From an uncultured Planctomycetia bacterium (GTDB taxonomy: Bacteria; Omnitrophota; Gorgyraeia; Duberdicusellales; Duberdicusellaceae): a stretch of 64,000 nucleotides of DNA. The stretch is from the NCBI GenBank assembly GCA_964634935.1, contig CAZWJT010000001.1, forward strand, positions 16,203 through 80,202, in the 5' to 3' direction. A program made the position numbers and the translations under genes. The notes under the pieces are model-generated. The model was given only the letters and a program-made list of their open reading frames with translations. It did no database searches and was not told where the DNA came from. Positions 2,261-42,853 of the stretch are shown here, piece after piece (the first letter of the stretch is position 1; every line of letters begins with the position of its first letter).

Positions 2261-2947
2261 CTAAAACAACTTCAAGATATAAATTCCGGAATAATATAAG
2301 CCAACGAGAATAAAAATAACCCCGGTGATCCTGCGGGTATAAAATTCCAGCTTCGTGATTTTATGGAACCAATGGCTCATCGATGTCACTCCCAGCGCAA
2401 CAGCAACAGCGAAACCCAGCACCGGAAGTCCTGTCCCTATACCATAGATAAACGGCAATATCGTTCCGGCTTTGCTATTAAGCGCCAATGGAATAAGACT
2501 CCCGAAGAATAACGCCGCCGAGACAGGACAAAACGCTAAAGCAAATATAACCCCCAAAAGGAAAGCGCCGGGAGCACCCGACTCCACAAGTTTATTGTGG
2601 TGCTTTTGAGACAGTGTCACGCCGGGCAATTTTATCGTGATAACTTCCAACAAAAACAATCCTGTAATTATCAAAAGAGGCCCTAATGCCTTAACCATGT
2701 ATTTCTGCAAAAACTGCGCAACTTGCGGAACGCTTAACAGCGAACCGATAATGATCCAGCCGAGAACAGCGTAAGCAACCATCCTGCCGAGCGTATAGGC
2801 GAGCCCTGAAATAAACACCATAAACGGATGAGCTATCTTCTTTGAAAGAAATGATACCGCCGCAATATTTGTGGCTAAAGGGCATGGGCTGATTGACGTC
2901 AATATTCCAAGCCAAACGGCTGAACCTAAAGCGATTAAAAACTCCAT
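2261..2947 (-). CDS. ccdA: CcdA/DsbD-family transmembrane thiol:disulfide electron transporter
   Basis: 228 aa, about 6 TM segments. SPCPLA motif in TM1 and a second Cys (FCPVSAALFF), typical of the DsbD transmembrane-domain family. Its start overlaps the stop of the upstream thioredoxin-like gene (TAATG). Confidence 0.75.
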   Translation of the reverse strand: MEFLIALGSAVWLGILTSISPCPLATNIAAVSFLSKKIAHPFMVFISGLAYTLGRMVAYAVLGWIIIGSLLSVPQVAQFLQKYMVKALGPLLIITGLFLLEVITIKLPGVTLSQKHHNKLVESGAPGAFLLGVIFALAFCPVSAALFFGSLIPLALNSKAGTILPFIYGIGTGLPVLGFAVAVALGVTSMSHWFHKITKLEFYTRRITGVIFILVGLYYSGIYILKLF

Positions 2948-3366
2948 TATTGCGTATCCTTCATAAATGTATTTAATTCACCAGTCACATAATCCATAAA
3001 CTTTTGCTTATTGCGGGCAAGCTCCCAGATCTTATCAAGATTCTTCGATTTAGCTTCCTTGCCGTCTTTGACCAGCGAAAGAATAAGCGACTTGGTGTAC
3101 AGCTTATAGTCATCTACAAAATGCTCATTGCCCCGGTCCTCAACGTTTACCGCCTTAAACTCAAGTCTGCCCGAAGTGAGAGCATCTTTAAAATTCACCT
3201 CGATTGCCTCTCTGGAATACTTCTCCATGTTGGTGCAAGTGACACACCGAAATGATCCATGGAAATAATAAACGATGACTTTCGCTTGCGGACTTGATTG
3301 GGCTAAAGCGAAGGAACCGGTGCTAATTGCCGCAACAACCGCAAGAACCTGAATTATTTTTCTCAC
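2947..3366 (-). CDS. exported thioredoxin-fold protein with CxxC (CVTC) motif
   Basis: The track ORF runs to 3399. I prefer a GTG start at 3364-3366 because AGGAGG lies 5 nt upstream of it. That start gives the signal peptide M-RKIIQVLAVVAAISTGSFALA/QS. CVTC redox motif in a thioredoxin-like context (VIVYYFHGSFRCVTC). Confidence 0.55.
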   Translation of the reverse strand: MRKIIQVLAVVAAISTGSFALAQSSPQAKVIVYYFHGSFRCVTCTNMEKYSREAIEVNFKDALTSGRLEFKAVNVEDRGNEHFVDDYKLYTKSLILSLVKDGKEAKSKNLDKIWELARNKQKFMDYVTGELNTFMKDTQ

Positions 3367-3604
3367 ATCCGCCTCCTGAAAGGATTGTTTTGATCTCATT
3401 CTTACTTAAGACTTTCCCGGATGAAACTACCTTGCCATCAATAGCCAATCCGGGCGTCATCATGACACCGTATGCGGTAATTTTATCGATATCCGTGACC
3501 TTACCGATCTCGGCTTGAATGTTAAGTTCTTTAATAGCTTCCTCGGCGTTCGCCGTAAGCTGTTTGCATTTAGGGCACCCGACACCCAATATTTCAATCT
3601 TCAT
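3323..3604 (-). CDS. small thioredoxin-family protein (redox-active disulfide protein 2 type) with a C-terminal Cys-rich tail
   Basis: Real start is MKIEILGVGCPKCK with GGAGG 6 nt upstream; the first 37 codons of the track ORF are upstream read-through. CPKC active site and YGVM.TP..AIDGKVV core. Extra tail GGGCEKNNSGSCGCCGN. Confidence 0.7.
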   Translation of the reverse strand: MKIEILGVGCPKCKQLTANAEEAIKELNIQAEIGKVTDIDKITAYGVMMTPGLAIDGKVVSSGKVLSKNEIKTILSGGGCEKNNSGSCGCCGN

Positions 3605-3716
3605 ATCCCGCCTCCATCTTAACTTTAACCATTGTTTAATCAGAGTAAATATCTTTAGCCCTACCGCACTAAAGAATACGTAGCACAATCCCGTATTTCC
3701 ACAATATTGGCACATA

Positions 3717-4889
3717 TCATTTAACTATTGCTCCAAAAATCATTCCGCTTATCGTCGCCATAATGACAACGAGTGCCACGTATATAATTGTTTTTTTGGT
3801 ACCGATAACTCCTCTTATAACCAGCATACTCGGCAAGCTCAGCGCAGGCCCGGCCAAGAGAAGCGCTAACGCAGGCCCTTTACCCATTCCTGATCCGATC
3901 AATCCCTGCAAGATCGGAATCTCGGTAAGCGTGGCAAAATACATGAATGCCGCTACAATCGATGAGAAGAAATTCGCCCGCAAAGAATTGCCTCCGACCA
4001 ACGCCTCTACCCAGCGGGAAGGAATAACGCCTTCGTGACCGACCCTTCCCAAGAGAAACCCGGAAATCAGAACACCGCCCAAAAGAAGCGGAAGTATTTG
4101 CAAAGCGAAAGCCCATGTTGCCGAAGTCCACTCTTTTAATTCATCCTTTTTGAACCACTTGATAAGCATTGCCGCCAAGCTAACAAGAGAGAAACCTGCG
4201 ATCCACCATTTATATTGATAAATGAACGACCATGCGCCATGATCGCCTTCTAATGGCTTGCCCCAATTAGCGAAAACCAGTATTACCACCATAGAGGCAA
4301 AATAAAGAACGGCCTGTGCTAATGAGCGGGTTTCTTTTACCTCTCCGACGTTAAAATCGCCGTTTGCATGCCGAGCTCTCTCTTTTTTTAGAAATATCAA
4401 ATGCATCAATAATCCGATTACGACGCTAAAAACCACAGCCCCGATAGCTCGAGCCAATCCTAATTGCCAGCCAAGGATCCGGGCCGTCAAGATAATCGCC
4501 AAAACATTGATTGCGGGTCCGGAATAAAGGAAGGTGATCGCAGGCCCAAGCCCTGCGCCGCGTTTGTAGATGCCGGAAAACAAAGGCAAAACCGTACACG
4601 AACATACCGCCAAGATCGTCCCGGACACGGACGCCACACTGTAGGAAAGAAACTTATTCGCCTTCGCGCCGAAATACTTCATAACCGACGCTTGACTGAC
4701 AAACACAGAAATGGCTCCCGCAATAAAGAACGCCGGAACAAGACACAAAAGCACGTGCTCCCGGGCGTACCATTTAACAAGCGCCAAAGCTTCAAAGACA
4801 GCGTTGGTAAAACGAAAATTCTCAACCGGCAGGTAAAAACAGCCTAAGAATATGGCGGCAATATATAAAAATTTCTTCCATTCTTTCAT
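3717..4889 (-). CDS. COG0701/DUF318-type membrane permease (ArsP-like)
   Basis: 390-aa polytopic membrane protein with an intramembrane CSC motif (AVCSCTVLPLF), as in ArsP-type organoarsenical permeases. Embedded in the ars cluster. ATGA overlap with the upstream regulator gene. Confidence 0.65.
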   Translation of the reverse strand: MKEWKKFLYIAAIFLGCFYLPVENFRFTNAVFEALALVKWYAREHVLLCLVPAFFIAGAISVFVSQASVMKYFGAKANKFLSYSVASVSGTILAVCSCTVLPLFSGIYKRGAGLGPAITFLYSGPAINVLAIILTARILGWQLGLARAIGAVVFSVVIGLLMHLIFLKKERARHANGDFNVGEVKETRSLAQAVLYFASMVVILVFANWGKPLEGDHGAWSFIYQYKWWIAGFSLVSLAAMLIKWFKKDELKEWTSATWAFALQILPLLLGGVLISGFLLGRVGHEGVIPSRWVEALVGGNSLRANFFSSIVAAFMYFATLTEIPILQGLIGSGMGKGPALALLLAGPALSLPSMLVIRGVIGTKKTIIYVALVVIMATISGMIFGAIVK

Positions 4890-22677: not shown

Positions 22678-22902
22678 CTTGCGTTATTAAGCAAGATGGC
22701 GGCCCGACCATCAAAAAACCTCCAGGAGAATTATTCCTGGACCCAAATCTTTTTTACTTTACTATTTCGTTCTGTCGCTGAGTCTTATTTTCTGATCGCT
22801 TCTTGCATATCGTTCAGCGCTTGGATGTAGGTTGTTGAATGTAAATATAAGTTTATTATATACAAAAAAAACTTTTCGGCAAGGATGAATTCAGCGAGAA
22901 AC

Positions 22903-31968: not shown

Positions 31969-34065
31969 CTATCTTCTGTGTAAAATCATCTTAATCCGCG
32001 CCAGCAACTTGTCAGAATCAAAGGGTTTGATAATATAGTCATCCGCGCCTTGCGCAAAACCCTCAAGCTCACTTGACTTATCCTGCCGAGCAGTCAGCAT
32101 AATTACCGGAATCACTGCTGTTTCTAAACGCGATCGCAAATGGCGCAACATCTCGAAACCGTTCATCTTCGGCATAGTAACATCACTAATAATCAAATCC
32201 GGCTTGGCCCGATGCGCAAGCTCTAGAGCTTCGCTTCCGTCGCGGGCGACAATCACTTGATACCCAAAGCTCTGCAATCGGGCTTCGAGAATCCTTAAAA
32301 TATCCTCTTCATCATCGGCGATAAGAATTTTTATTTTTTGTCCGGTATCCCGGGAAAACTTATCGATTCTATCCTCTTCTCTCACTCCAATAACCCGAAT
32401 AAGCTCATCGAGGGTGCTCATTCCGGATGCAACTTTGTCCATCCCGGAATAGATAAGGGGCTTGAGACCGTTGTTTTGGGCGGCGAGGAAAATCTGTTCT
32501 TCAGGAACTTCTTCGGCAATTAGTCTACGGATAGAATCATTGATTGCCATCATCTCAAAAATAGCTGTTCTCCCCATATATCCAGTAAAATTGCATCGCG
32601 GACATCCTTTGCCATGGAAAAATTTAGTAATCCGCAACTCTTCTATGTGTTTTCGAAAATCAGCAATTAAATTTTGCGGAGGAACATATTCTTCCCGACA
32701 ATCAGAACAAATCACTTTTATAAGCCTCTGTGCCACTATCAGGACAACCGACGAAGCAATACTATACGCTTCAACACCTAAATCTCTCAGGCGCGTTACC
32801 GAAGAAACAGAATTATTTGTGTGCATTGTCGAAAGAACCAGATGTCCGGTAAGTGAAGATTGGAATGCGATTTCCGCTGTCTCTTGGTCTCGGATTTCGC
32901 CTACGAGAATAATATTAGGATCCTGTCGTAAAATACTCCTCAATCCGGTAGCAAAGGTGACATTCTTCTGAGGATTTACCTGCATTTGGTTAACCCCCGC
33001 GATAAGATACTCAATCGGATCTTCAATGGTGACGATGTTTTTTGTCTCGTGCTTTATATAATTTAAAGCGGCGTAAAGCGTGCTGGTTTTCCCTGAACCA
33101 GTAGGCCCAGTTACTAAAATCATTCCCTGGGGTTTCCGAATGGCACTCTGAAAAATATGCGAATCAGAAGAACTTAAGCCTATTTTGGCTAAATCGATCT
33201 TTGCCTCTTGAAGATCAAGGAGTCGCATCTCAACTTTTTCTCCGAAAAAAGTTGGAATAACCGAAACACGCAGATCAATCTTCCTGCCATATACAAGAAT
33301 TTTGCTTCGCCCGTCTTGTGGCTTGCGCGTCTCAGCAATATCAAGCTCGGAAAGAATCTTGAGACGAGAAACAATGAACGGATGGAGGGCGGCGGGAATC
33401 CGCATAACATTTTGGAGATCTCCGTCTACCCGATAACGCACGATTACCTCGGATTCTTGCACTTCGACATGAATATCACTTGCCCGGGCTTTCACGGCAT
33501 CGGTAATAATAAGGGTACAAAGACGAACTACCGGAGCGTCTGAATCTTCAATAAGCTGAACAGCGCCGCTGGATGTGAATTTTTTAATCGGCTCAAGAGA
33601 TGTTTGATCGACAATATTCTTTAAAATATCATACACCGTTTCATCTGAATGATAGTGCTGCTCAAGAAAAACCTTAATCACACTTTTTGAACAGAGAATT
33701 GGCTGAATATCCTTTTTCGCAATAACCGCAAGGTCATCCCGCGCGATAACATCTTGAGGATCACTCATCGCAAGAACAAGTGCATTTCTTTCAATCCGAA
33801 CAGGAAACACGCCATATCGTTTTGCCAGTTCATAGGGAACAAGCTTAACAACTTCAGGATCAAACGACTCAGCGGAAAGATCGCATATGGGCATATGGAA
33901 AACTTCCGCGGCTACTTCAACCACCACTTCTTCCTTGATAAAACCCATATCAATAAGCACTTCGTGCAAAGGAATTTTTGCTCCCTGCTGTTTTGATCTG
34001 GCATCATTGATTTGCTCTTGAGTCACCAGTTCTTTTTCCAATAATGCGGTTACGAGTAGTGACAT
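31969..34065 (-). CDS. GspE/PilB-family secretion ATPase fused to a C-terminal CheY-like receiver domain
   Basis: T2SSE_N-like N-domain. Walker A GPTGSGKTST and tetracysteine (CSDC...CPRC). C-terminal ILIADDEEDI...DLIISDVTMPKMNGFE...K receiver domain with the phospho-acceptor Asp. Confidence 0.8.
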   Translation of the reverse strand: MSLLVTALLEKELVTQEQINDARSKQQGAKIPLHEVLIDMGFIKEEVVVEVAAEVFHMPICDLSAESFDPEVVKLVPYELAKRYGVFPVRIERNALVLAMSDPQDVIARDDLAVIAKKDIQPILCSKSVIKVFLEQHYHSDETVYDILKNIVDQTSLEPIKKFTSSGAVQLIEDSDAPVVRLCTLIITDAVKARASDIHVEVQESEVIVRYRVDGDLQNVMRIPAALHPFIVSRLKILSELDIAETRKPQDGRSKILVYGRKIDLRVSVIPTFFGEKVEMRLLDLQEAKIDLAKIGLSSSDSHIFQSAIRKPQGMILVTGPTGSGKTSTLYAALNYIKHETKNIVTIEDPIEYLIAGVNQMQVNPQKNVTFATGLRSILRQDPNIILVGEIRDQETAEIAFQSSLTGHLVLSTMHTNNSVSSVTRLRDLGVEAYSIASSVVLIVAQRLIKVICSDCREEYVPPQNLIADFRKHIEELRITKFFHGKGCPRCNFTGYMGRTAIFEMMAINDSIRRLIAEEVPEEQIFLAAQNNGLKPLIYSGMDKVASGMSTLDELIRVIGVREEDRIDKFSRDTGQKIKILIADDEEDILRILEARLQSFGYQVIVARDGSEALELAHRAKPDLIISDVTMPKMNGFEMLRHLRSRLETAVIPVIMLTARQDKSSELEGFAQGADDYIIKPFDSDKLLARIKMILHRR

Positions 34066-34112: not shown

Positions 34113-35600
34113 TTACAGGTTTTTTGTGCATCTGCAATCATCTTGTTTTTGCCTTTTGGGTATATTTTGTTTATCTTGAGAATACATCTTATCGCGCATA
34201 CCGGAGGAATTACCCAACCAACAATAGAGACATAAATTTTCCCTGGGAAGCCCGATAGCAGACACCATATCTTCTATGGTCTGAAAACGCAATGTGGTAA
34301 CCCCTAAATCTTTCGTAATCCAAGAAACCATCTGCTGGTATTTCTCAGAGTGAGGACTCAAGTAATCGGACACATCGTCAATGTCGTGTCCCTCAAGAGC
34401 ACGAATTGCACGGCGGGCGGCAAGCTCATGAATGCTCCGGGTAGAAAGACAAAATTTGCAGGGAAACAGCAACGGTGGACACGCAGGTCGAACATGGATT
34501 TCCCGGGCGCCGTTCTCCCACAATTTATTTGTAGTAAAATTTTTGAGTTGGGTTCCACGCACTATTGAATCTTCACAAACAACAATCCGCTGCCCGGCAA
34601 TAATTTCCCGGATAGGAACAAGCTTCATACGGGCTATCAAATCTCTCGTTTCTTGTGACGGAGGCGTATAACTTCTCCCGTATCCCGGCGTATACTTGAC
34701 GAGCGGCCGACGATGCGGAATTCCGGATTCCATGGAATAACCAATAGCATGCGCTGTCCCCGAATCAGGAATCCCGCAAACAAGATCCGCCTGCATATCA
34801 ATGTCTTTCTTCGCCAAAAACCTTCCACATCGCTCCCGAACTGTTTCCACGGTAATCCCTTCATAGCTTGAGGCTGGAAAACCAGTATAAATCCAAAGAA
34901 AAGAACAAATTTGTTTTTTACTCATTCCTGAAACTTTAGAAACTATGCCGGTTTCATTCAATAAAACGATCTCCCCGGGATCAAGATATTTAACTATAGT
35001 AAAACCGAGGTTTGGAAACGCGCTGGTCTCTGTGGCAATAGCCCAATCGTTATCTTTTTGTGCGATAACCAGTGGCGTATAACCAAACCTATCCCGAGCA
35101 GCATAAATTCCGTCTTTATGCAGAATAAGCAACGAACAAGAACCCTCAATAAGATCAAACATCCGCTCAATTCCGTTTTCTAGTGTTACCCCTTCAAGAA
35201 TAAGTTTTCCAATAAGCTCAGTAACATTCACTCCGCTTTTTCCTACCTCGCTGAACGAAACACCCCCCTGAAGTAAACGTTCCGCCAGAATTTCTTTATT
35301 TTCCAAAAGTCCCGCGGTAACAATACAAAAGGAACCAAATTTTGAATGTAGATAAATGGGTTGCTCGTTGCTATCACTAATAACCCCGATTCCCTTATTC
35401 CCATGCATATGCTTATAATCTTCGAAGAATTTAGACTTAAACTGGCTCTGGCTGATATTATGAATATGCCGGCTGAGTTTTTCTCCTAGAATAGCAAGTC
35501 CTCCATATTCTGTCCCAAGGTGCGAATGATAATCTGTTCCATAAAATAAAAATTGTGCGCAATCTCCTTGGGCGCAAACTGTTCCAAAAATTCCACTCAT
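34113..35600 (-). CDS. amidophosphoribosyltransferase (PurF)-like protein with Ser in place of the N-terminal nucleophile Cys
   Basis: Ntn-type glutamine amidotransferase domain (MSGIFG..., GIGVISD) plus a type-I PRTase motif VVCEDSIVRGTQL. Codon 2 is AGT (Ser), where PurF has TGT (Cys1). Confidence 0.7.
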   Translation of the reverse strand: MSGIFGTVCAQGDCAQFLFYGTDYHSHLGTEYGGLAILGEKLSRHIHNISQSQFKSKFFEDYKHMHGNKGIGVISDSNEQPIYLHSKFGSFCIVTAGLLENKEILAERLLQGGVSFSEVGKSGVNVTELIGKLILEGVTLENGIERMFDLIEGSCSLLILHKDGIYAARDRFGYTPLVIAQKDNDWAIATETSAFPNLGFTIVKYLDPGEIVLLNETGIVSKVSGMSKKQICSFLWIYTGFPASSYEGITVETVRERCGRFLAKKDIDMQADLVCGIPDSGTAHAIGYSMESGIPHRRPLVKYTPGYGRSYTPPSQETRDLIARMKLVPIREIIAGQRIVVCEDSIVRGTQLKNFTTNKLWENGAREIHVRPACPPLLFPCKFCLSTRSIHELAARRAIRALEGHDIDDVSDYLSPHSEKYQQMVSWITKDLGVTTLRFQTIEDMVSAIGLPRENLCLYCWLGNSSGMRDKMYSQDKQNIPKRQKQDDCRCTKNL

Positions 35601-35654: not shown

Positions 35655-37535
35655 TCAATTCTTCTCAACCGGAGAAAAATTTCCTTCATCCTGCGGCTTT
35701 ACTCCCATTATTTCTTTTGGCCTAGTAATTTGAAAAACCTTATTGAAGTCGGAAAATAATTGCATGTACTCAAGATCAACCGGGTTATTTTTTGCCGTAG
35801 TTCCTTTAACTTTTACCACCGTTTTCACGATAGTTTTCGATGCTTTATCAATCCAAATAAACAGAGAGAAAGAGATATTATCTTCGCTCTGTTTCTGGTA
35901 AAAATCAAGCAGTTGTTTTGGCTTGTATTCTAAAACCGCGTATCGGCTTCCTGAACAATAGATTTCTCCGGGGTCAGGGCTATTCTCTTCCATAAGCTTC
36001 AGGTATTTTTCGATAGTAAGAAAATTGTTTGTTTTATTCCGATCCCAGGTTTGACTTGTATTTTCCGGCTCCTCAAACCACATGCCAATCTCAAAATAGT
36101 GCTTCTTTTCAATACTCATCCACCGGTCAGCAACCCCATGCTCATGATCCTGCTGCATCACTGAAAATCTATCCGGGGTTTCATACTGGATATCCCACTC
36201 GATACCCTTGTATTGTTTCGATTGTAACTTCTCGTTGGTAAAATCAAACATATACAATCTGCTCCCATATGAACTTGCCGCGCGGACAGCCGCGATGGTT
36301 TCTTTGACCAAATTCGTAAGAGCAACCGCTTCTTGAATCTTTTCGAGCTTATTGATTTCCAGAACTTCAAGCCTCGCATAATCTAGCTCCCGCTCAAGAA
36401 GAGCAGCCGATTCACTGCCGAGCGACCGTAAAGAATCGATCTCCAAAGATGCTCCCTGAAAATCTCGGTTCCTCAGGTGAATCATTCCAAGGGAATAATG
36501 CGCAAAAGCATCATTGGGATTCTCTAAAATAAGCTGTTTCAAGCGGTATGCCGCCTCTGAAATATTATAATCAGAAAGGTATTTCATAATCACCATTCTC
36601 AAAAGCTCTATTCTGGCAGAACCTTTCTGCCGTGCAATTTCTTCTAGACAAATCTCAAAAACCCTGGGATGTTGGCGACAATTACTGTCTAAAGACCAGC
36701 TGGCAGACCATTTAGTTACAAGATATAAAAATTCCTGATCAGTTAAACGGAGCGCATCCCGAATCGCGTGAAAAGCCTCTGGATCTTTCTTTGAGTACCG
36801 CAAGGACTTTGCCAAAATAATATCTAAATCGTCCCTTGTTGTAATTTCCTGTTTCTTGAGGTCAGAGGCAATTTGTAAACGGGTATTCAAAAGCTGTATG
36901 ATTTTCTCTTTTTCTTGAGACGCAGCCTGGCTCCTCAAGTATTCGGTTAATTTAGAACGAACCCTATCCGGCCAATTCAGCACACTAATAATTTTCTGAA
37001 CCGCTCCAGCGTCCCCGGAAACCATAAATTCAGCCCACAAGAAATCAAGATCCTCCGCAGTCTGTGCTTCCCGTAAGAGCGGGTTAAATTTCATTGGAAA
37101 ATCCTGAGCAAGAAAACTTTGAATAATTTCGCGCTCTTGAGAAAAATCGGTATCCTGAACTTTGCTCAAAAGGAAGTCTTGCACTTCTTTCGTCGCACAA
37201 AATTGGAAAACCTGAAGAAGAAAAATTCTTCCCTTGGATGACGCAGTCGCAAAAAGCTCCAGGTAACTGGAAAGTATCTCGGGAGAAAACTGAGCAATCC
37301 GCCCAAATGAATAAGCAGTGCTGTTTAAATTCTTTTGCTGGGTAGCGTTTAAACCATTAAAGAATGAAGAAGAAATAAACTCTTTCAGTGCTTGCGGAAC
37401 TTTTTCTGGAAGGGGGTGGACATAGTAATAAGTGAGAATGTCTCCTACCTTGTTTTTCGGATCCTCTTGAGCATACATCATGCTTACCCCAATCCAGAAA
37501 AGAAAAAACATAGAAAGAATTTTCATCCCGCGCAT
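35655..37535 (-). CDS. hypothetical exported protein with TPR-like segment
   Basis: Signal peptide MRGMKILSMFFLFWIGVSMMYAQ. 626 aa. One TPR-like stretch (AYRLKQLILENPNDAFAHYSLGMIHL). Confidence 0.45.
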   Translation of the reverse strand: MRGMKILSMFFLFWIGVSMMYAQEDPKNKVGDILTYYYVHPLPEKVPQALKEFISSSFFNGLNATQQKNLNSTAYSFGRIAQFSPEILSSYLELFATASSKGRIFLLQVFQFCATKEVQDFLLSKVQDTDFSQEREIIQSFLAQDFPMKFNPLLREAQTAEDLDFLWAEFMVSGDAGAVQKIISVLNWPDRVRSKLTEYLRSQAASQEKEKIIQLLNTRLQIASDLKKQEITTRDDLDIILAKSLRYSKKDPEAFHAIRDALRLTDQEFLYLVTKWSASWSLDSNCRQHPRVFEICLEEIARQKGSARIELLRMVIMKYLSDYNISEAAYRLKQLILENPNDAFAHYSLGMIHLRNRDFQGASLEIDSLRSLGSESAALLERELDYARLEVLEINKLEKIQEAVALTNLVKETIAAVRAASSYGSRLYMFDFTNEKLQSKQYKGIEWDIQYETPDRFSVMQQDHEHGVADRWMSIEKKHYFEIGMWFEEPENTSQTWDRNKTNNFLTIEKYLKLMEENSPDPGEIYCSGSRYAVLEYKPKQLLDFYQKQSEDNISFSLFIWIDKASKTIVKTVVKVKGTTAKNNPVDLEYMQLFSDFNKVFQITRPKEIMGVKPQDEGNFSPVEKN

Positions 37536-37565
37536 ACCAGCTCCTTGTGGTTCGCAAAAATTATT

Positions 37566-38198
37566 CTACTCGTATAACAGGTTGTCAATTTGAACACGCT
37601 TCACATAAATAATCTCACAAGAACCCATCCCTGTGTCTGATCTACTTAAACTCGTATTCCACCATACTGGATTTTCCCCTTGAAATCCTTTAATGTTAAC
37701 AAGATAGCCCTCGATTCGCATCTTCTGGTTAATGCGCGCAGCACACATCGCCCGATACACGCTTTCATTAGCAGGAATTGTATGGTTATTAGAAGAATGA
37801 GTAATGATATCTTCATTCTGGAAAGGACTCTCTGGGGTATATTGCCAATAATACCATCGATTATTCTGCCAATAGCGGACGAAACGCTTGGCTTCCGACT
37901 CAGCCAGCTTCCCCCAAACAAAAGCAACATCAAACGGAGCTAAACATGCTTCCCAGCTCGAAGAGTACTTTTTTTTGCCCACTACTACGCCAGAAAGAGC
38001 ATAGCGCGCAACTGGCAGAATTTGAAATTCTTCCGTTCCGCATCGAACAGTCAATGTTTCACCGTCAAACGGTTCTTGACAAGGATCCTCGTAGATATCA
38101 ATGATTTGGGAAACTTCTTCTTTTCCCTTATGATTACCACACCCAGAAACTATCAAACCAATGGAACAGAACCCCAGAAAAACAACCAGACTTTTCAT
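37566..38198 (-). CDS. hypothetical lipoprotein
   Basis: Signal peptide with lipobox LIVSGC. 210 aa, Trp/Tyr-rich. Confidence 0.45.
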   Translation of the reverse strand: MKSLVVFLGFCSIGLIVSGCGNHKGKEEVSQIIDIYEDPCQEPFDGETLTVRCGTEEFQILPVARYALSGVVVGKKKYSSSWEACLAPFDVAFVWGKLAESEAKRFVRYWQNNRWYYWQYTPESPFQNEDIITHSSNNHTIPANESVYRAMCAARINQKMRIEGYLVNIKGFQGENPVWWNTSLSRSDTGMGSCEIIYVKRVQIDNLLYE

Positions 38199-38267
38199 AG
38201 AAATAACGGCATTTTTCAGGTGTTTCCCGATAAAGAATAAAACAATTGAACTTTATTCTTCAACCAG

Positions 38268-38870
38268 TCACGAAATGACCAATTCAACAGTGTCAAAATA
38301 AAAGACTCCCTTACTTTCTGGCTTTGGTTCAAACTGAAAACTCTTTAACGGAAAGTCCAGCTGGAAATTGTTATCGGCATTATCCGGCTGCCAGTCTCCT
38401 CGAGGAAGAAAATCATCGAGAGAACAAACAATCTGCTTCCAGCCAGTAAAGGTATCTTCGATAAGATACCGGAAAATCTCATTACCGCTATCTTTTATGT
38501 CGAACGCGATATTAGCCTGGGAATTATTTCCATATACCCAGACGGAAATTGCGCGAACTTTCTTCCATTCAATTCCATCGGGCTTGATGAGCCAAGAAGA
38601 GTTTTTGGCGTCCAGGCCGTACCCGCGAGCAATCCAGATATAGCCGCCAGAAACTGCTTGATAGTCGACTTTAAGCGACTGGTTCCCCGTGTGTTTCATT
38701 TGCTGGTCGGCAGAAACTGCCACCGCTGAACCATTCCCGGATCCAAAATCAACAGTTCCCTCTGGACCACCAATTAAATTTCCCTCAAAATCATCAAGTA
38801 AAATATTTGCTCCTTCCGCGAAACAAACACCTGCAAACAACACGATAACAATCAACCAAAATAAACGCAT
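38268..38870 (-). CDS. hypothetical exported beta-rich protein
   Basis: Start chosen at MRLFWLIVIVLFAGVCFA/EG (GGAGGGG upstream); the track ORF extends to 38924. No motif recognised. Confidence 0.4.
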   Translation of the reverse strand: MRLFWLIVIVLFAGVCFAEGANILLDDFEGNLIGGPEGTVDFGSGNGSAVAVSADQQMKHTGNQSLKVDYQAVSGGYIWIARGYGLDAKNSSWLIKPDGIEWKKVRAISVWVYGNNSQANIAFDIKDSGNEIFRYLIEDTFTGWKQIVCSLDDFLPRGDWQPDNADNNFQLDFPLKSFQFEPKPESKGVFYFDTVELVIS

Positions 38871-38907
38871 TATCCCCTCCTTTTTCATGCTATTAGTATA
38901 CACGAAA

Positions 38908-39927
38908 TCATCGAATATTCCCATTCAAAACGGCTTCTTCCTGGTATTTTCTTAGAAATGGTTCCTCGCATGAATACGAGTTAAAGCATGCTTCAGCCGC
39001 AGCTTTGCATCCGCCGAAACAGCGAAGTCGTAATTTGCATAAACGACAGAATGGAGGAAAAACAGCGACAAAATCCCGTGCAGCCTTTTTCGCGATAATA
39101 TGCTCAAATGACTCAGTATCAATATTACCAAGGATCATCCCGCTATGATTGCACATGCGCACATTACCAAGCGGATCAATCGTGTAATACGCGTTTTCGG
39201 TTCCGGCAGAACAAAATCCAAAGTGAAGCTTCTGGAATTTTCCTAGATTTATTAGGCAGGGCTGAATAGGAATTGAACATGAAATTGGAAAATTATATCG
39301 CATACTAAAAGCGTCTGCTTGCGCAAGAACCAAATCTATCTGGGAAGGTGTCGGAAGCAGCTCTTCGCAATGAAAAACCCCTTCACCGCCGGGATTAAAA
39401 CGGTTAAGCATTAAACTATCCGCACCCAAAGCAAAAGCCAGCTTCGCGGTACCCTCAAAATCCTCAATATTCTTACGGGTTGCAACAAACACAACGACTA
39501 CTCGCGCATGATATTGTTTTAAAGTTACCAGCGTACGGGTAATCTCGTCGAAAGCATCATATCGCATAAGAGCGTTATGAACTGCACGATGACAGCTCAA
39601 TAACGGCAACTCAAAGGTAACGAACTTGGAACAATTTCTTGCCGCTTGCTGAGAGATAAGAGTTCCATTCGTAATGATATTAATCAGAACAGCCTGATCT
39701 TTTAAAAAATGAACTATTTCTTCAAGATCATCACGAAGAAATGGTTCTCCGCCAGTAAGCGTTATAACCGAGGCTTTCGTCTCAGAAAGAATCTTTGCCA
39801 ATAAATCCTTGGTTTTTGCGGTATCAAGTTCTCCCCGCGGGTAGCTAGGATTGCGTTTCCATACGTTATAACAATAAACACAAGAACTGTTACAGCGCTG
39901 GGTAATCTCAAAAATAATATTCCTTAT
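38908..39927 (-). CDS. radical SAM / SPASM-domain maturase; no canonical start codon
   Basis: The in-frame translation upstream of the track ORF gives ...IRNIIFEITQRCNSSCVYCYN (CxxxCxxC), then GGEPFL, and a C-terminal auxiliary-cluster Cys array (CRLCKLRLRCFGGCKAAAEAC). There is no ATG, GTG or TTG between the upstream in-frame TGA and the Cys motif. The only candidates are ATA at 39925-39927 (5 nt after AAGGAGGG) or ATT. The 5' boundary is uncertain. Confidence 0.6.
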   Translation of the reverse strand: MRNIIFEITQRCNSSCVYCYNVWKRNPSYPRGELDTAKTKDLLAKILSETKASVITLTGGEPFLRDDLEEIVHFLKDQAVLINIITNGTLISQQAARNCSKFVTFELPLLSCHRAVHNALMRYDAFDEITRTLVTLKQYHARVVVVFVATRKNIEDFEGTAKLAFALGADSLMLNRFNPGGEGVFHCEELLPTPSQIDLVLAQADAFSMRYNFPISCSIPIQPCLINLGKFQKLHFGFCSAGTENAYYTIDPLGNVRMCNHSGMILGNIDTESFEHIIAKKAARDFVAVFPPFCRLCKLRLRCFGGCKAAAEACFNSYSCEEPFLRKYQEEAVLNGNIR

Positions 39928-39940
39928 GGCTCCCTCCTTC

Positions 39941-41380
39941 TTATTGATTCATTGCTACGATAAAAGAAAGTGCTTCAATCATTTCTGGCCGCACGGGAAA
40001 ATCATCTCGTATCTCTGCTGAATCATATTCCTGGTTTATAAAATAACTCAAAAGTTTCTGCTCTTCTTTTTGATAAAGTTCCCAATTTTTCCCGGATGCT
40101 TTTTTCCAGGCTCCTTCGATGCAAAGCACCATTTCCATATCTTTTGCCAGATTCTTCTCAGCTTGGGCGAGAACTCCCCGTTCAACGATACCCTGCCCTT
40201 GCAACGTTCGAAGCTCTTTTAATCGCGCCTCAATATCGTCACGTAACTTTTGCTGTTTAAATCCCAACACTGTTGGCTCGTAACACGTAATTGCGCTCGT
40301 TGAACGCAAGCGGTGAAAGACACGGTCCTTATAAATACCAACGAGCAGCTCAGCCGTTGAAACGCTGATAATCTTTCTCGCCGTGAACACCGAAAGAAGA
40401 TTACGAAGCTCTTCCTCTTCGCGGGCAAGCGTTGCTGGTATATTTGATGAACGGAAATCCGCTAATCCATTAAACTCATGAACCGAATTCCATTTTTTCT
40501 TCAACACAGCCCACTCAGAAAACGCAGAATAATCTTGGTTTTGGAAATCATTCTCGGACGTATGCCTTTTCGCAACATTCGGAGCAGCCAAAGAATAGAA
40601 ATCAATTATATAGTTGACAGCCTCTTGGACAGAAGGACTGACCACAAGCTCAAAACTCACTTTTCCTTCAGCAAAAAGAAGCGCCAACGCCTCCTCTTCC
40701 TGAAAATCATACTGATGGGTTTGCTGTGTTTTCGCAAAAAGAGCTTCAGCGCGCTTGAGATATTCGATATCGCGACCCAAGGTTTCTTTGGAAGCCCGAA
40801 TAATACTTTCTTCAACATACCCACGGGCCGCAATCTCACCAAGCATTTGGCATCGCTTTTCTAAATTCTCTCGTACAGACCAAACTGAACTACCCAAAGT
40901 AGTCGGTTTATAACAGGTTTCTCCCGATTGCGAGCGCAACCGATGAAAAATCATCTCACCATAAATCATTTCCAGAACAATGGCAACATCTTTTCGAATC
41001 AACCCTTTATCAACAAGAGCAGAAAAATTTCTGGCGAGAATCTGCTTTTTTGTAGCGATAACATCCCGATAATCCGCAGCAGCAGCAACCGCCTCTTTTG
41101 TAAGATCAAGCCACTGCGAGCGAATAGCCAGCCATTCGGAAGTATTTTTCAAATCAGGGGTCTTGGAAAATAAACAATCTTCATTGTTCTTTGCTTGTGC
41201 ATAAGCAAAAGATTGTTGTTGCGAAAAGATAGCAAGAAACGAGGAAAGTGCGATGAAAAATTGCCGACTTAAAAAAGTATTTCCTTTCAGATGAAAAATG
41301 GGTTTTTTTCTCGTGCAGATATAGTAAAGAGCAACAAAAAACGCAAACACGCTCAGCGTAAAAACAGCTATCTTATGCAT
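39941..41380 (-). CDS. hypothetical exported protein with an internal ~190-aa tandem duplication
   Basis: Repeat 1 contains SEWLAIRSQW ... IYGEMIFHRLRSQSGETCYKPTTLG. Repeat 2 contains SEWAVLKKKW ... IYKDRVFHRLRSTSAITCYEPTVLG. N-terminal TM or signal segments. Confidence 0.45.
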   Translation of the reverse strand: MHKIAVFTLSVFAFFVALYYICTRKKPIFHLKGNTFLSRQFFIALSSFLAIFSQQQSFAYAQAKNNEDCLFSKTPDLKNTSEWLAIRSQWLDLTKEAVAAAADYRDVIATKKQILARNFSALVDKGLIRKDVAIVLEMIYGEMIFHRLRSQSGETCYKPTTLGSSVWSVRENLEKRCQMLGEIAARGYVEESIIRASKETLGRDIEYLKRAEALFAKTQQTHQYDFQEEEALALLFAEGKVSFELVVSPSVQEAVNYIIDFYSLAAPNVAKRHTSENDFQNQDYSAFSEWAVLKKKWNSVHEFNGLADFRSSNIPATLAREEEELRNLLSVFTARKIISVSTAELLVGIYKDRVFHRLRSTSAITCYEPTVLGFKQQKLRDDIEARLKELRTLQGQGIVERGVLAQAEKNLAKDMEMVLCIEGAWKKASGKNWELYQKEEQKLLSYFINQEYDSAEIRDDFPVRPEMIEALSFIVAMNQ

Positions 41381-41635
41381 ATTTCTCCTTGGTTAATCTT
41401 GCGGGAATTATTCGCAAAGATAGTTTCTCCGAAAAATTCTTCCGGCTGCATAATGCGCTATCTTCTTTTCCTCCATTCAAGCGCACCAAAAAACAGTAAA
41501 CATAGCAAACAGGTACCATATTATTTCAAATACCGCGCACAGCCTTCCTAAGAGACCGCGGAAAAAACTCTCGGTCAATCATACAACATCCACGGCATAA
41601 ACAACCGGCAAGAATCACAAGACAAGAATACTTTT

Positions 41636-42853
41636 CTAATTTTCATGGTTTATACCGCAACTTGCACGGAAAATTGCCTGCCTGCCAAGTTTGCTTCGGA
41701 TTTTTTCAACCGCCCGGTGTAAATTTTCTCTACGCTTCTCTTCCTGCCAAAAAATAGTCTCGCTCTCTTTTTGACCGCTTAAACGGGAAATCTTAATCCC
41801 GAGAAGCCTAATCATTCCCGCTTGGTCTATGTGTTGGAAAAGAGCGACTGCGTGACGAAACAATATGTCAACAAAGTTTGTGGAAAAAGCTAACGTCACG
41901 GATTTTGTTGTCGTGGTGAAATCTGAGAACCGCACCTTTACTACCAGTGTTCTTCCAACAATCTGTTCATGCCTCAATCTCTCAGAAACATCCTCACAAA
42001 GAGAAAATAGTGTTTTCCTGAGAAGATCGCCATCTCGGGTATCGCGTTCGAAGGTAACCTCGGAACTTATCGATTTTGTCGTAGCATTCTCCTCAACCTG
42101 GTGTGCATCTCTGCCCCAAGCAAGTTCAAAGAAATAATTTCCGTTCTTTCCAAACAATCTCTGCAAAACCTTTAAATCATACCGTGCGAGAGCTCCAATC
42201 GTAGCGACACCCATCCGACGAAGAACTTCTTCTGTTTTCTTACCCAAACCGCACAACTTGGTTACCGGGAGAGGCCACAAAAATTTAAGCAGATCTTGGG
42301 GAACAACCTCGACTAATCCATCTGGCTTCTGAAGATCAGAAGCTATTTTTGCCGCCATTTTTGTTGGTGCAATTCCTAAAGAAGCAGTAAGACCAAGTTT
42401 TTTCAAGATACATTCTTTTAAACTTCTTGCGGCATGAAGACTGGATGCGTATCGATGCATCGTACTCGTCATGTCTAAAAATGCTTCATCGATACTCACG
42501 ACCTCATGCACGGGGGTAAAAGCATCAAAAATCTGATACAATTGACGGGAAACCTGTTGGTAGCGTTCCATACGGACCGGAACGAATACCGCCTGAGGGC
42601 ATAACTTATACGCAATAGATATGGGCATCGCGGAATGTATTCCAAAGGCGCGCGCCTGGTAAGAACAAGTAGAAACTACTCCTCGCCCCCGCCCTCCCTT
42701 GGGGTCGGCGCCAACAATGAGAGGACGGTCACGATAGCTAGGGTTATCTTTCTGCTCTACAGAAGCAAAGAAAGCATCCATGTCTACATGAAAAATTACC
42801 GAAAAATGTTCAACAGACACGCTTTTATTCAATCTAAGCAACCAGTCCATCAA
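41636..42853 (-). CDS. dinB: DNA polymerase IV (Y-family)
   Basis: IFHVDMDAFFASVE catalytic block, SIDEAFLD, and a little-finger domain. 405 aa. Confidence 0.85.
   Translation of the reverse strand: MMDWLLRLNKSVSVEHFSVIFHVDMDAFFASVEQKDNPSYRDRPLIVGADPKGGRGRGVVSTCSYQARAFGIHSAMPISIAYKLCPQAVFVPVRMERYQQVSRQLYQIFDAFTPVHEVVSIDEAFLDMTSTMHRYASSLHAARSLKECILKKLGLTASLGIAPTKMAAKIASDLQKPDGLVEVVPQDLLKFLWPLPVTKLCGLGKKTEEVLRRMGVATIGALARYDLKVLQRLFGKNGNYFFELAWGRDAHQVEENATTKSISSEVTFERDTRDGDLLRKTLFSLCEDVSERLRHEQIVGRTLVVKVRFSDFTTTTKSVTLAFSTNFVDILFRHAVALFQHIDQAGMIRLLGIKISRLSGQKESETIFWQEEKRRENLHRAVEKIRSKLGRQAIFRASCGINHEN

Follow-up and report, generated by a model that had tools for sequence, protein, structure and literature searches.

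Radical S-adenosylmethionine (SAM) enzymes with a SPASM domain are a major source of new peptide chemistry. To our knowledge, very few of them act on full-size proteins, the main examples being sulfatase maturase and QhpD. The anaerobic sulfatase-maturating enzyme (anSME) combines a SPASM domain with the absence of an RRE domain, and modifies a cysteine (or serine) within a short linear motif; its target proteins are full-size and exported, and the reaction takes place in the cytoplasm prior to export. PqqE modifies a tyrosine-containing ribosomal product, in which it forms a carbon-carbon cross-link. QhpD is a SPASM radical SAM enzyme encoded beside a dedicated substrate, QhpC, into which it introduces Cys thioether cross-links before export (PMC11951088). 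Here, we describe a radical SAM/SPASM enzyme gene and the gene for a 479-amino-acid (aa) exported protein directly upstream of it, both on the minus strand of a 64,000-nucleotide (nt) stretch of contig CAZWJT010000001.1 from an uncultured Planctomycetia bacterium (hereafter the window). The two genes form a conserved two-gene cassette that is widespread and unannotated, and not the five-gene block of a maturase with four exported proteins that a preliminary description of the window had proposed.

A conserved pair of genes and the Cys-Tyr domain

The features of the two genes are as follows.
38908-39927, minus strand: radical SAM/SPASM enzyme, 339 aa if the start is ATA 39927; sits between the 200-aa and 479-aa open reading frames (ORFs)
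38968-39258, minus strand: SPASM region, with C224, C239-x14-G-x4-C259, C294-x2-C297-x5-C303-x3-C307 and C313
39871-39894, minus strand: CNSSCVYC, the CxxxCxxC cluster motif (residues 12-19), upstream of the first canonical start, TTG 39801
39925-39939, minus strand: Shine-Dalgarno AAGGAGGG (39939-39932), 4-nt spacer and ATA (39927-39925), a probable near-cognate start read from the sequence
39941-41380, minus strand: 479-aa exported protein that carries the all-helical "Cys-Tyr domain" twice and is proposed to be the substrate or partner of the enzyme (from the ORF list and homology)
40040-40522, minus strand: Cys-Tyr domain copy 2, residues 287-447 (hmmsearch)
40280-40288, minus strand: T365-C366-Y367, motif of copy 2 (translation TCY)
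40691-41152, minus strand: Cys-Tyr domain copy 1, residues 77-230 (hmmsearch)
40910-40918, minus strand: T155-C156-Y157, motif of copy 1 (translation TCY)

A scan of species-representative genomes returned 218 relatives of the enzyme. All comparison loci come from metagenome bins, with ORFs called mechanically. Approximately 26 of the best 80 loci are from Planctomycetota and approximately 30 from Chloroflexota, and the set also includes Myxococcota or Deltaproteobacteria, Verrucomicrobiota, Kiritimatiellia, Armatimonadota, Proteobacteria-labelled bins, one Cyanobacteriota bin and one Thermoplasmatota bin. The non-redundant loci with an enzyme homologue number 82 (44-59% identity, at least 8 phyla).

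In the nearest relatives (57-58% identity), a protein of 457-501 aa without a Pfam match ends 2 nt before the enzyme gene and is 33-35% identical to the 479-aa protein of the window (E 1e-70 to 1e-85). More distant relatives have an upstream protein of 245 or 438 aa, likewise without a Pfam match, that abuts or overlaps the enzyme start. When 15 window proteins around the block were compared by tblastn with 89 enzyme loci, the enzyme was found in all 89 and the 479-aa protein directly in 24. An iterated domain profile, seeded with both halves of the window protein plus near relatives, detected the domain in 79 of 90 sources, in nearly every case within the ORF immediately preceding the enzyme gene. 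These 79 sources span Planctomycetota, Chloroflexota, Myxococcota, Verrucomicrobiota, Kiritimatiellia, Armatimonadota, Proteobacteria-labelled bins and one archaeal bin. The profile was trained on the same small set of loci, and a whole-library profile search that is independent of this set backs the domain family. The preliminary description had considered that homologues of the enzyme might consistently stand beside sulfatases or other unrelated substrates; instead, they consistently adjoin homologues of the 479-aa protein.

All-against-all clustering of ORFs within 5 kb at the 82 loci identified the upstream, co-oriented partner as the sole conserved neighbour. No other gene family was present at more than 7 loci, and no family of small conserved ORFs was found. 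A 4-nt overlap joins the upstream stop codon to the enzyme start in 41 of 76 loci, and the spacing lies between -8 and +17 nt in 62 of the 76; partner and enzyme genes are normally translationally coupled.

A few loci have additional features. At L046, the ORF upstream of the enzyme homologue (2610-3743) ends in a SPASM-like Cys pattern (CKYLQICRGGCW) and is apparently a second radical SAM/SPASM gene rather than one for a Cys-Tyr protein. In the closest long relative contig (L004, 11121-13600), the cassette is followed by genes for a B12-binding radical SAM protein and a chalcone-synthase-like type III polyketide synthase, which are seen at no other locus.

The 479-aa gene is preceded by a Shine-Dalgarno sequence (AAGGAG) 5 nt 5' of ATG 41380, and its product matches no Pfam or NCBIfam model. 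The duplicated domain that had been read from this protein is real: the halves are 28% identical (E 5e-20), and each of the two copies matches the domain profile with E 1e-33. An AlphaFold2 model of residues 285-449 has six helices, with a predicted local distance difference test (pLDDT) score of 75.7, and the motif lies on a low-confidence loop between helices; the Cys-Tyr motif is therefore predicted to sit on a flexible, exposed loop. The N-terminus (41200-41380) has two hydrophobic segments and no GPRW motif, and by the positive-inside rule the domains would lie outside the cytoplasm.

The partner domain comprises approximately 160 aa, is all-helical and occurs in 1-9 copies in proteins of 170-1500 aa. 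The family is defined by an invariant C-Y in the loop that joins the fourth helix to the fifth, and by a gene placed directly upstream of that of the enzyme; the window protein fits it. An alignment of 28 diverse copies of the domain, with 12-42% identity to the first sequence, has just two invariant columns, the cysteine and the tyrosine that follows it. The motif usually takes the form T-C-Y-x-P; the Cys is preceded by T or M, and the Tyr is followed by D/E/K and then by P or M.

An index-free profile search over 1.84 billion cluster representatives at 50% identity yielded 968 proteins at E <=1e-3 and 639 at E <=1e-10, and recovered the 479-aa protein at E 1.5e-90 with two domain stretches. 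Word-indexed searches were far less sensitive, giving 3 matches with the 479-aa query and 13 with the domain alignment. Across 331 domain instances from the library representatives, the Cys is present in 298 of 312 non-gap cells and the Tyr in 298 of 313. One or more CY dipeptides are found in 160 of 161 proteins, the exception having CH at the same site, and two domain copies are the commonest form (106 of 161). P0131, one of three tandem paralogues at locus L090, has Cys-His in place of Cys-Tyr.

The motif is strongly enriched in the ORFs upstream of the enzyme relative to 571 long control ORFs from the same loci. Per 1000 aa, upstream ORFs contain 4.8 CY dipeptides and controls 0.33 (15-fold); the corresponding figures for [TS]CY are 3.9 and 0.064 (62-fold). 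A CY is found at least once in 89% of upstream ORFs versus 10% of controls, and the share of cysteines that lie in CY is 38% in partners versus 2.4% in controls. The motif is also found in Pro/Thr-rich linkers just after the signal sequence (e.g., PPTCYAPV three times in L089), as well as in upstream ORFs without the domain. Its occurrence outside the domain, in linkers, fits a short recognition site.

No Pfam match was obtained for any of 21 partner family members tested and no NCBIfam match for any of 7. Partners have Tat-like or Sec-like signals (Tat, twin-arginine translocation). Those of the Chloroflexota type start with a Tat-like RRDFMK signal, and those of the Planctomycetota type with a transmembrane helix, a conserved basic GPRW(K/R)RRL stretch and a second hydrophobic segment, often with a lipobox-like Cys at the end. 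Approximately two-thirds of the partner members (P0141-P0285) have a transmembrane helix, often starting MPQR, followed by GPRW(K/R)RRL with twin arginines. P0141 (1478 aa) matches the domain in 9 stretches and contains no Pfam domain, and members of 880-1116 aa show no further recognisable domain.

A short precursor peptide, encoded nearby or elsewhere, might nevertheless be the true substrate, in which case the adjacency to the helical protein would have another cause. Most characterised SPASM maturases act on short peptides, and a 48-aa ORF (41373-41519) contains VCY. The earlier observation that the block leaves no intergenic room for a precursor stands: the spacers are 13 nt between the 479-aa and enzyme genes, 37 nt between the enzyme and 200-aa genes, 69 nt between the 200-aa and 210-aa genes, and 30 nt between the 210-aa and 626-aa genes, so that a precursor gene cannot fit inside the block. 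The 255-nt gap 5' of the 479-aa gene has small ORFs only, which are unconserved, and we rejected the 48-aa ORF as a precursor since it has neither a Shine-Dalgarno sequence nor a conserved counterpart. The 82 loci lack any small conserved ORF family, the enzyme lacks an RRE domain, and the invariant motif is located in the large partner. A separate precursor peptide is therefore very unlikely.

The enzyme, its start codon and a proposed maturation

The enzyme matches Radical_SAM (PF04055; E 1.6e-17, 64.6 bits versus a cut-off of 29.5), SPASM (PF13186; E 1.1e-06, 29.2 bits versus 21.5) and Fer4_12 (PF13353; E 7.2e-07) in Pfam. The CxxxCxxC motif and the PF04055 match place it in the radical SAM superfamily, and it has the SPASM subfamily pattern CX9-15GX4C, gap, CX2CX5CX3C, gap, C, plus C224 upstream. 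In a 26-sequence alignment of the enzyme family, C12, C16 and C19 are invariant, as are the SPASM cysteines except C313, and the window enzyme has every residue that is invariant across the alignment. More than 1700 homologues were detected, of which the best 120 share 47-59% identity. No signal sequence was found in the enzyme, which we take to be cytoplasmic. It also has no N-terminal RRE domain; just 11 residues precede the cluster motif, leaving no space for one.

The start codon of the enzyme gene requires comment. The frame is closed upstream by TGA 39951-39949, and contains no ATG, GTG or TTG until TTG 39801, which lies past the cluster motif. Both the mechanically called ORF and the database copy P0004 (297 aa; NCBI, Logan) begin at this TTG and lack CxxxCxxC, and protein collections thus list the window enzyme as a 297-aa fragment without the cluster motif, an annotation that should be corrected. 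From ATA 39927 onward, the sequence encodes the invariant N-terminal residues E7, C12, C16, C19, Y20, N21, Y29 and P30. The ATA could reflect near-cognate initiation, an ATG-to-ATA change or a sequencing error. Near-cognate initiation is the probable explanation, as the near-perfect Shine-Dalgarno AAGGAGGG 4 nt before the ATA suggests selection for initiation there.

Alternatively, the cassette could be decaying in this genome, with the start codon of the enzyme lost and the gene a pseudogene or barely expressed, so that no maturation takes place. The lack of a canonical start between the TGA and TTG 39801 and the missing CxxxCxxC in P0004 are in line with this, as is the fact that the enzyme genes of relatives have an ATG start 2 nt after the upstream stop. 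Decay is harder to reconcile with a frame that is open to ATA 39927 and encodes all the invariant N-terminal residues, with the well-placed Shine-Dalgarno sequence and with the intact remainder of the ORF, and we consider it improbable.

The scores of the enzyme against curated models bear on what it acts on. Its top NCBIfam matches are AhbD (85 bits) and NirJ2 (84 bits), both with cut-offs of 500, and PqqE (79.5 versus 381), MftC (79.2 versus 265) and StsB (79.7 versus 625) score lower; it is far under the cut-off of every curated NCBIfam equivalog. The enzyme is thus not a member of the AhbD/NirJ group, and homologues reach 110 versus 500. Nor does it belong with the PqqE, MftC or sactipeptide maturases of ribosomally synthesised and post-translationally modified peptides, given the scores, the lack of an RRE domain and the lack of a conserved small ORF. 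A family-profile search of solved structures returned PqqE (PDB 6c8v) as the closest, with 75.5 bits and E 3.5e-20 over residues 11-334, followed by SkfB, MoaA, sulfatase maturase (49 bits) and CteB.

The main rival to a protein-modifying enzyme is one that acts on a small molecule or cofactor, e.g., a tetrapyrrole, with the helical protein serving as exported carrier or acceptor and the Cys-Tyr as attachment or ligand site. AhbD and NirJ2 are the top curated matches, and one source labels an enzyme homologue "AdoMet-dependent heme synthase". The absence of an RRE domain is compatible with this possibility, as are the Tat-type signals on some partners, since Tat substrates are often cofactor-loaded. 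The scores are, however, equalled by those of the peptide maturases PqqE, MftC and StsB (79-80 bits), and the best solved relative is PqqE, over its full length. In the clustering of the 82 loci, no gene for tetrapyrrole synthesis or another cofactor pathway recurs nearby. Moreover, unstructured Pro/Thr linkers also contain the motif, and it is present in as many as 9 copies, which would be unusual for a cofactor pocket. A small-molecule substrate is therefore unlikely.

We favour, with moderate confidence, a reading in which the partner is modified at its Cys-Tyr site by the enzyme in the cytoplasm, and is exported afterwards. Several lines of evidence point to the dipeptide as the site of the enzyme: a SPASM enzyme that is dedicated, translationally coupled and free of an RRE domain; a single fixed dipeptide in an otherwise hypervariable partner; its recurrence in unstructured linkers and in many copies; and its position on a flexible loop. 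The partner would be membrane-anchored or exported, with each all-helical domain offering T-C-Y-x-P on a flexible loop. The enzyme would recognise this short linear motif while the partner is still unfolded or has yet to be exported, and cleave SAM to generate a 5'-deoxyadenosyl radical that abstracts hydrogen at or next to the Cys-Tyr pair. The resulting covalent modification would be installed before export, candidate products being a Cys-derived aldehyde (through hydrogen abstraction at the Cys Cβ), a Cys thioether or a PqqE-like, Tyr-centred cross-link. We infer the substrate relationship, the pre-export timing and the chemistry from sequence and gene order, while pairing, coupling, the domain family and the invariance of the motif are direct observations. 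The core of the earlier proposal, i.e., an exported substrate of protein size that has a conserved Cys motif and is matured by a SPASM enzyme before export, with no short precursor involved, fits the 479-aa protein well.

Several points weigh against this reading. Adjacency and motif invariance are no proof of a substrate relationship, and approximately 6 of the 82 loci have no Cys-Tyr ORF upstream of the enzyme. In the reverse direction, 2 of 3 domain proteins checked have no radical SAM gene within 5 kb. The best curated-model matches are to the small-molecule enzymes AhbD and NirJ2, though with 84-85 bits versus 500, and without a canonical start the window enzyme may be poorly expressed or inactive. 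The two domain loci without an adjoining enzyme suggest that some members are dispersed, as sulfatases are from their maturase. One of these, L090 (4271-6433), encodes three tandem Cys-Tyr domain paralogues of 237, 235 and 233 aa; the other adjoins genes for an FG-GAP protein and a multihaem cytochrome.

If the partner is indeed modified, the enzyme would be a radical SAM/SPASM maturase whose protein substrates belong to a new class and carry a new motif. More tentatively, the cassette could represent an undescribed and widespread modification that converts the Cys-Tyr dipeptide into a new protein-derived cross-link or cofactor, possibly a Cys-Tyr thioether formed independently of oxygen or an aldehyde derived from the Cys. 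In the literature that we searched, in which subscription journals were mostly outside coverage, neither this pair nor a radical SAM-dependent modification of Cys-Tyr is described. The modified proteins, with 1-9 sites each, would then serve an unexplored envelope function in Planctomycetota, Chloroflexota and relatives. The pair is common (968 domain representatives at 50% identity and 218 enzyme relatives) and spread over many phyla, and neither Pfam nor NCBIfam includes it. The single invariant loop dipeptide, and a proposed substrate gene joined to the enzyme gene by a 4-nt overlap, provide an unusually clear, testable handle.

Neighbouring genes in the window

The remaining features in the vicinity, all on the minus strand, are the following.
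22694-22744, minus strand: nhaA-I riboswitch-like element, the sole Rfam match in the window at the gathering threshold (51.9 bits, E 2.3e-07)
31969-34065, minus strand: GspE/PilB-type secretion ATPase with an apparent C-terminal response-regulator receiver domain (KILIADDEEDIL...DVTMPKMNGFE), read by eye and not from a profile
34113-35600, minus strand: PurF-like class II amidotransferase, 54 nt past the 626-aa ORF in transcription order and four genes downstream of the enzyme; 198.8 bits versus a purF cut-off of 350
35655-37535, minus strand: 626-aa secreted protein with one weak TPR-like stretch (sub-threshold matches); neighbour outside the cassette
37566-38198, minus strand: 210-aa lipoprotein (lipobox LIVSGC); neighbour outside the cassette
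38268-38870, minus strand: 200-aa secreted CBM11-type β-sandwich protein (Pfam CBM_11), 218 aa from the alternative ATG 38924; neighbour outside the cassette
41636-42853, minus strand: DinB-type polymerase, first in transcription order, before the 255-nt gap and the 479-aa ORF

Transcription order is DinB-type polymerase, 479-aa protein, radical SAM/SPASM enzyme, 200-aa, 210-aa and 626-aa proteins, and PurF-like amidotransferase. The five ORFs of the block were recovered on the minus strand with the coordinates, sizes and 13-nt and 37-nt spacers given in the preliminary description. Promoter and terminator scans were not usefully above shuffled expectation.

The preliminary description assigned no function to the four exported proteins, and this has changed for the 200-aa protein. 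Over residues 21-198 it matches model positions 11-180 of 182 of CBM_11 (PF03425; E 1.5e-20, 74.4 bits versus 27) and, to judge from this match, it belongs to the CBM11 carbohydrate-binding fold family; its signal peptide ends CFA|EG. The 210-aa protein begins MKSLVVFLGFCSIGLIVSGC, with V-S-G-C at residues 17-20 that agrees as a sequence pattern with the lipobox [LVI][ASTVI][GAS]C. It has no Pfam or NCBIfam family match, and its AlphaFold2 model from a single sequence was unusable (pLDDT 33). The TPR character ascribed to the 626-aa protein comes down to one stretch at approximately residues 325-362 that is below all Pfam cut-offs (TPR_17 16.6 versus 24.4, TPR_16 15.8 versus 32.7 and TPR_2 15 versus 27 bits), and TPR proteins usually have at least three repeats in tandem; its signal peptide ends AQE. 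PDB sequence searches with the 210-aa and 626-aa proteins gave nothing below E 0.2. N-terminal export signals can be read in all four proteins of the block.

Any one of the 200-aa protein, the lipoprotein or the TPR protein could in principle be the substrate, with all five genes constituting one envelope-maturation system, as was originally proposed. The genes are co-oriented with 30-69 nt gaps, and all four proteins carry export signals. However, nearly every long ORF in the listed 28-50 kb stretch is on the minus strand, so that co-orientation carries little information. Homologues of the 626-aa, 210-aa and 200-aa proteins were matched by tblastn in none of the 89 enzyme loci, including those of the closest relatives, whose downstream genes differ from those in the window or lie on the opposite strand. 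None of the three proteins contains the Cys-Tyr motif, and the 200-aa protein, in which a conserved Cys motif was to be sought, is thus the wrong candidate. Metagenomic homologues of the lipoprotein occur alone, in unrelated contexts, and the 200-aa protein matches a known family of carbohydrate-binding fold. A five-gene system is largely refuted by these comparisons and is highly improbable; the CBM11-like, lipoprotein and weak-TPR proteins appear to be lineage-specific neighbours and no conserved part of the cassette.

The PurF-like amidotransferase was considered as a third component and rejected, as it is near the enzyme solely in L008, L009 and L018, which are loci with identical gene content. 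At these three loci (9770-11245 in L008), the amidotransferase is 27% identical to that of the window and is encoded two genes downstream of the enzyme homologue.

Comparison with known systems

PqqE resembles the window enzyme in its radical SAM core and full SPASM domain, and of the solved structures it is the nearest to the enzyme along the entire length. Its other features are absent here, i.e., the PqqD/RRE chaperone, the 20-30 aa peptide PqqA and the E-x-x-x-Y site. Unlike PqqA, the partner in the window is an exported protein from a 170-1500-aa family with a C-Y motif.

The autocatalytic Cys-Tyr cross-link cofactors of galactose oxidase and cysteine dioxygenase share with the cassette a conserved Cys and Tyr that act together as a protein-derived feature (PMC11951088). 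In those enzymes, however, the two residues are distant in sequence, the link arises with metal and O2 and needs no radical SAM enzyme, and the proteins have unrelated folds. No radical SAM route to such a link is listed in a 2025 review covering protein-derived cofactors (PMC11951088).

The likeness to QhpD and QhpC lies in the arrangement of a SPASM enzyme encoded beside its own protein substrate. QhpC, by contrast, is a small Cys-rich subunit whose operon also encodes dehydrogenase subunits, a peptidase and a flavoprotein, none of which is present at cassette loci. QhpD was not among the 25 best NCBIfam matches of the enzyme, and no direct comparison with QhpD was made.

The link to the sulfatase maturases drawn in the preliminary description holds as an analogy of logic and not as one of kinship. 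The window enzyme is not an anSME: with the family profile, anSME (PDB 4k36-4k39) scores 49 bits in two stretches, making it a weaker relative than PqqE. It was unmatched in the PDB by a single-sequence search at E 0.01, and is outside the 25 best NCBIfam matches. No sulfatase neighbours were found in the window block or, by clustering, at any of the 82 enzyme loci. The targets differ as well, anSME acting on C-x-P-x-R in sulfatases (C/S-x-P/A-x-R in the form that defines membership) versus T-C-Y-x-P in helical repeats here. In addition, anSME genes typically do not overlap with the gene for one dedicated substrate, as the enzyme gene of the cassette does. Within these bounds, anSME is the best functional analogy for the cassette.

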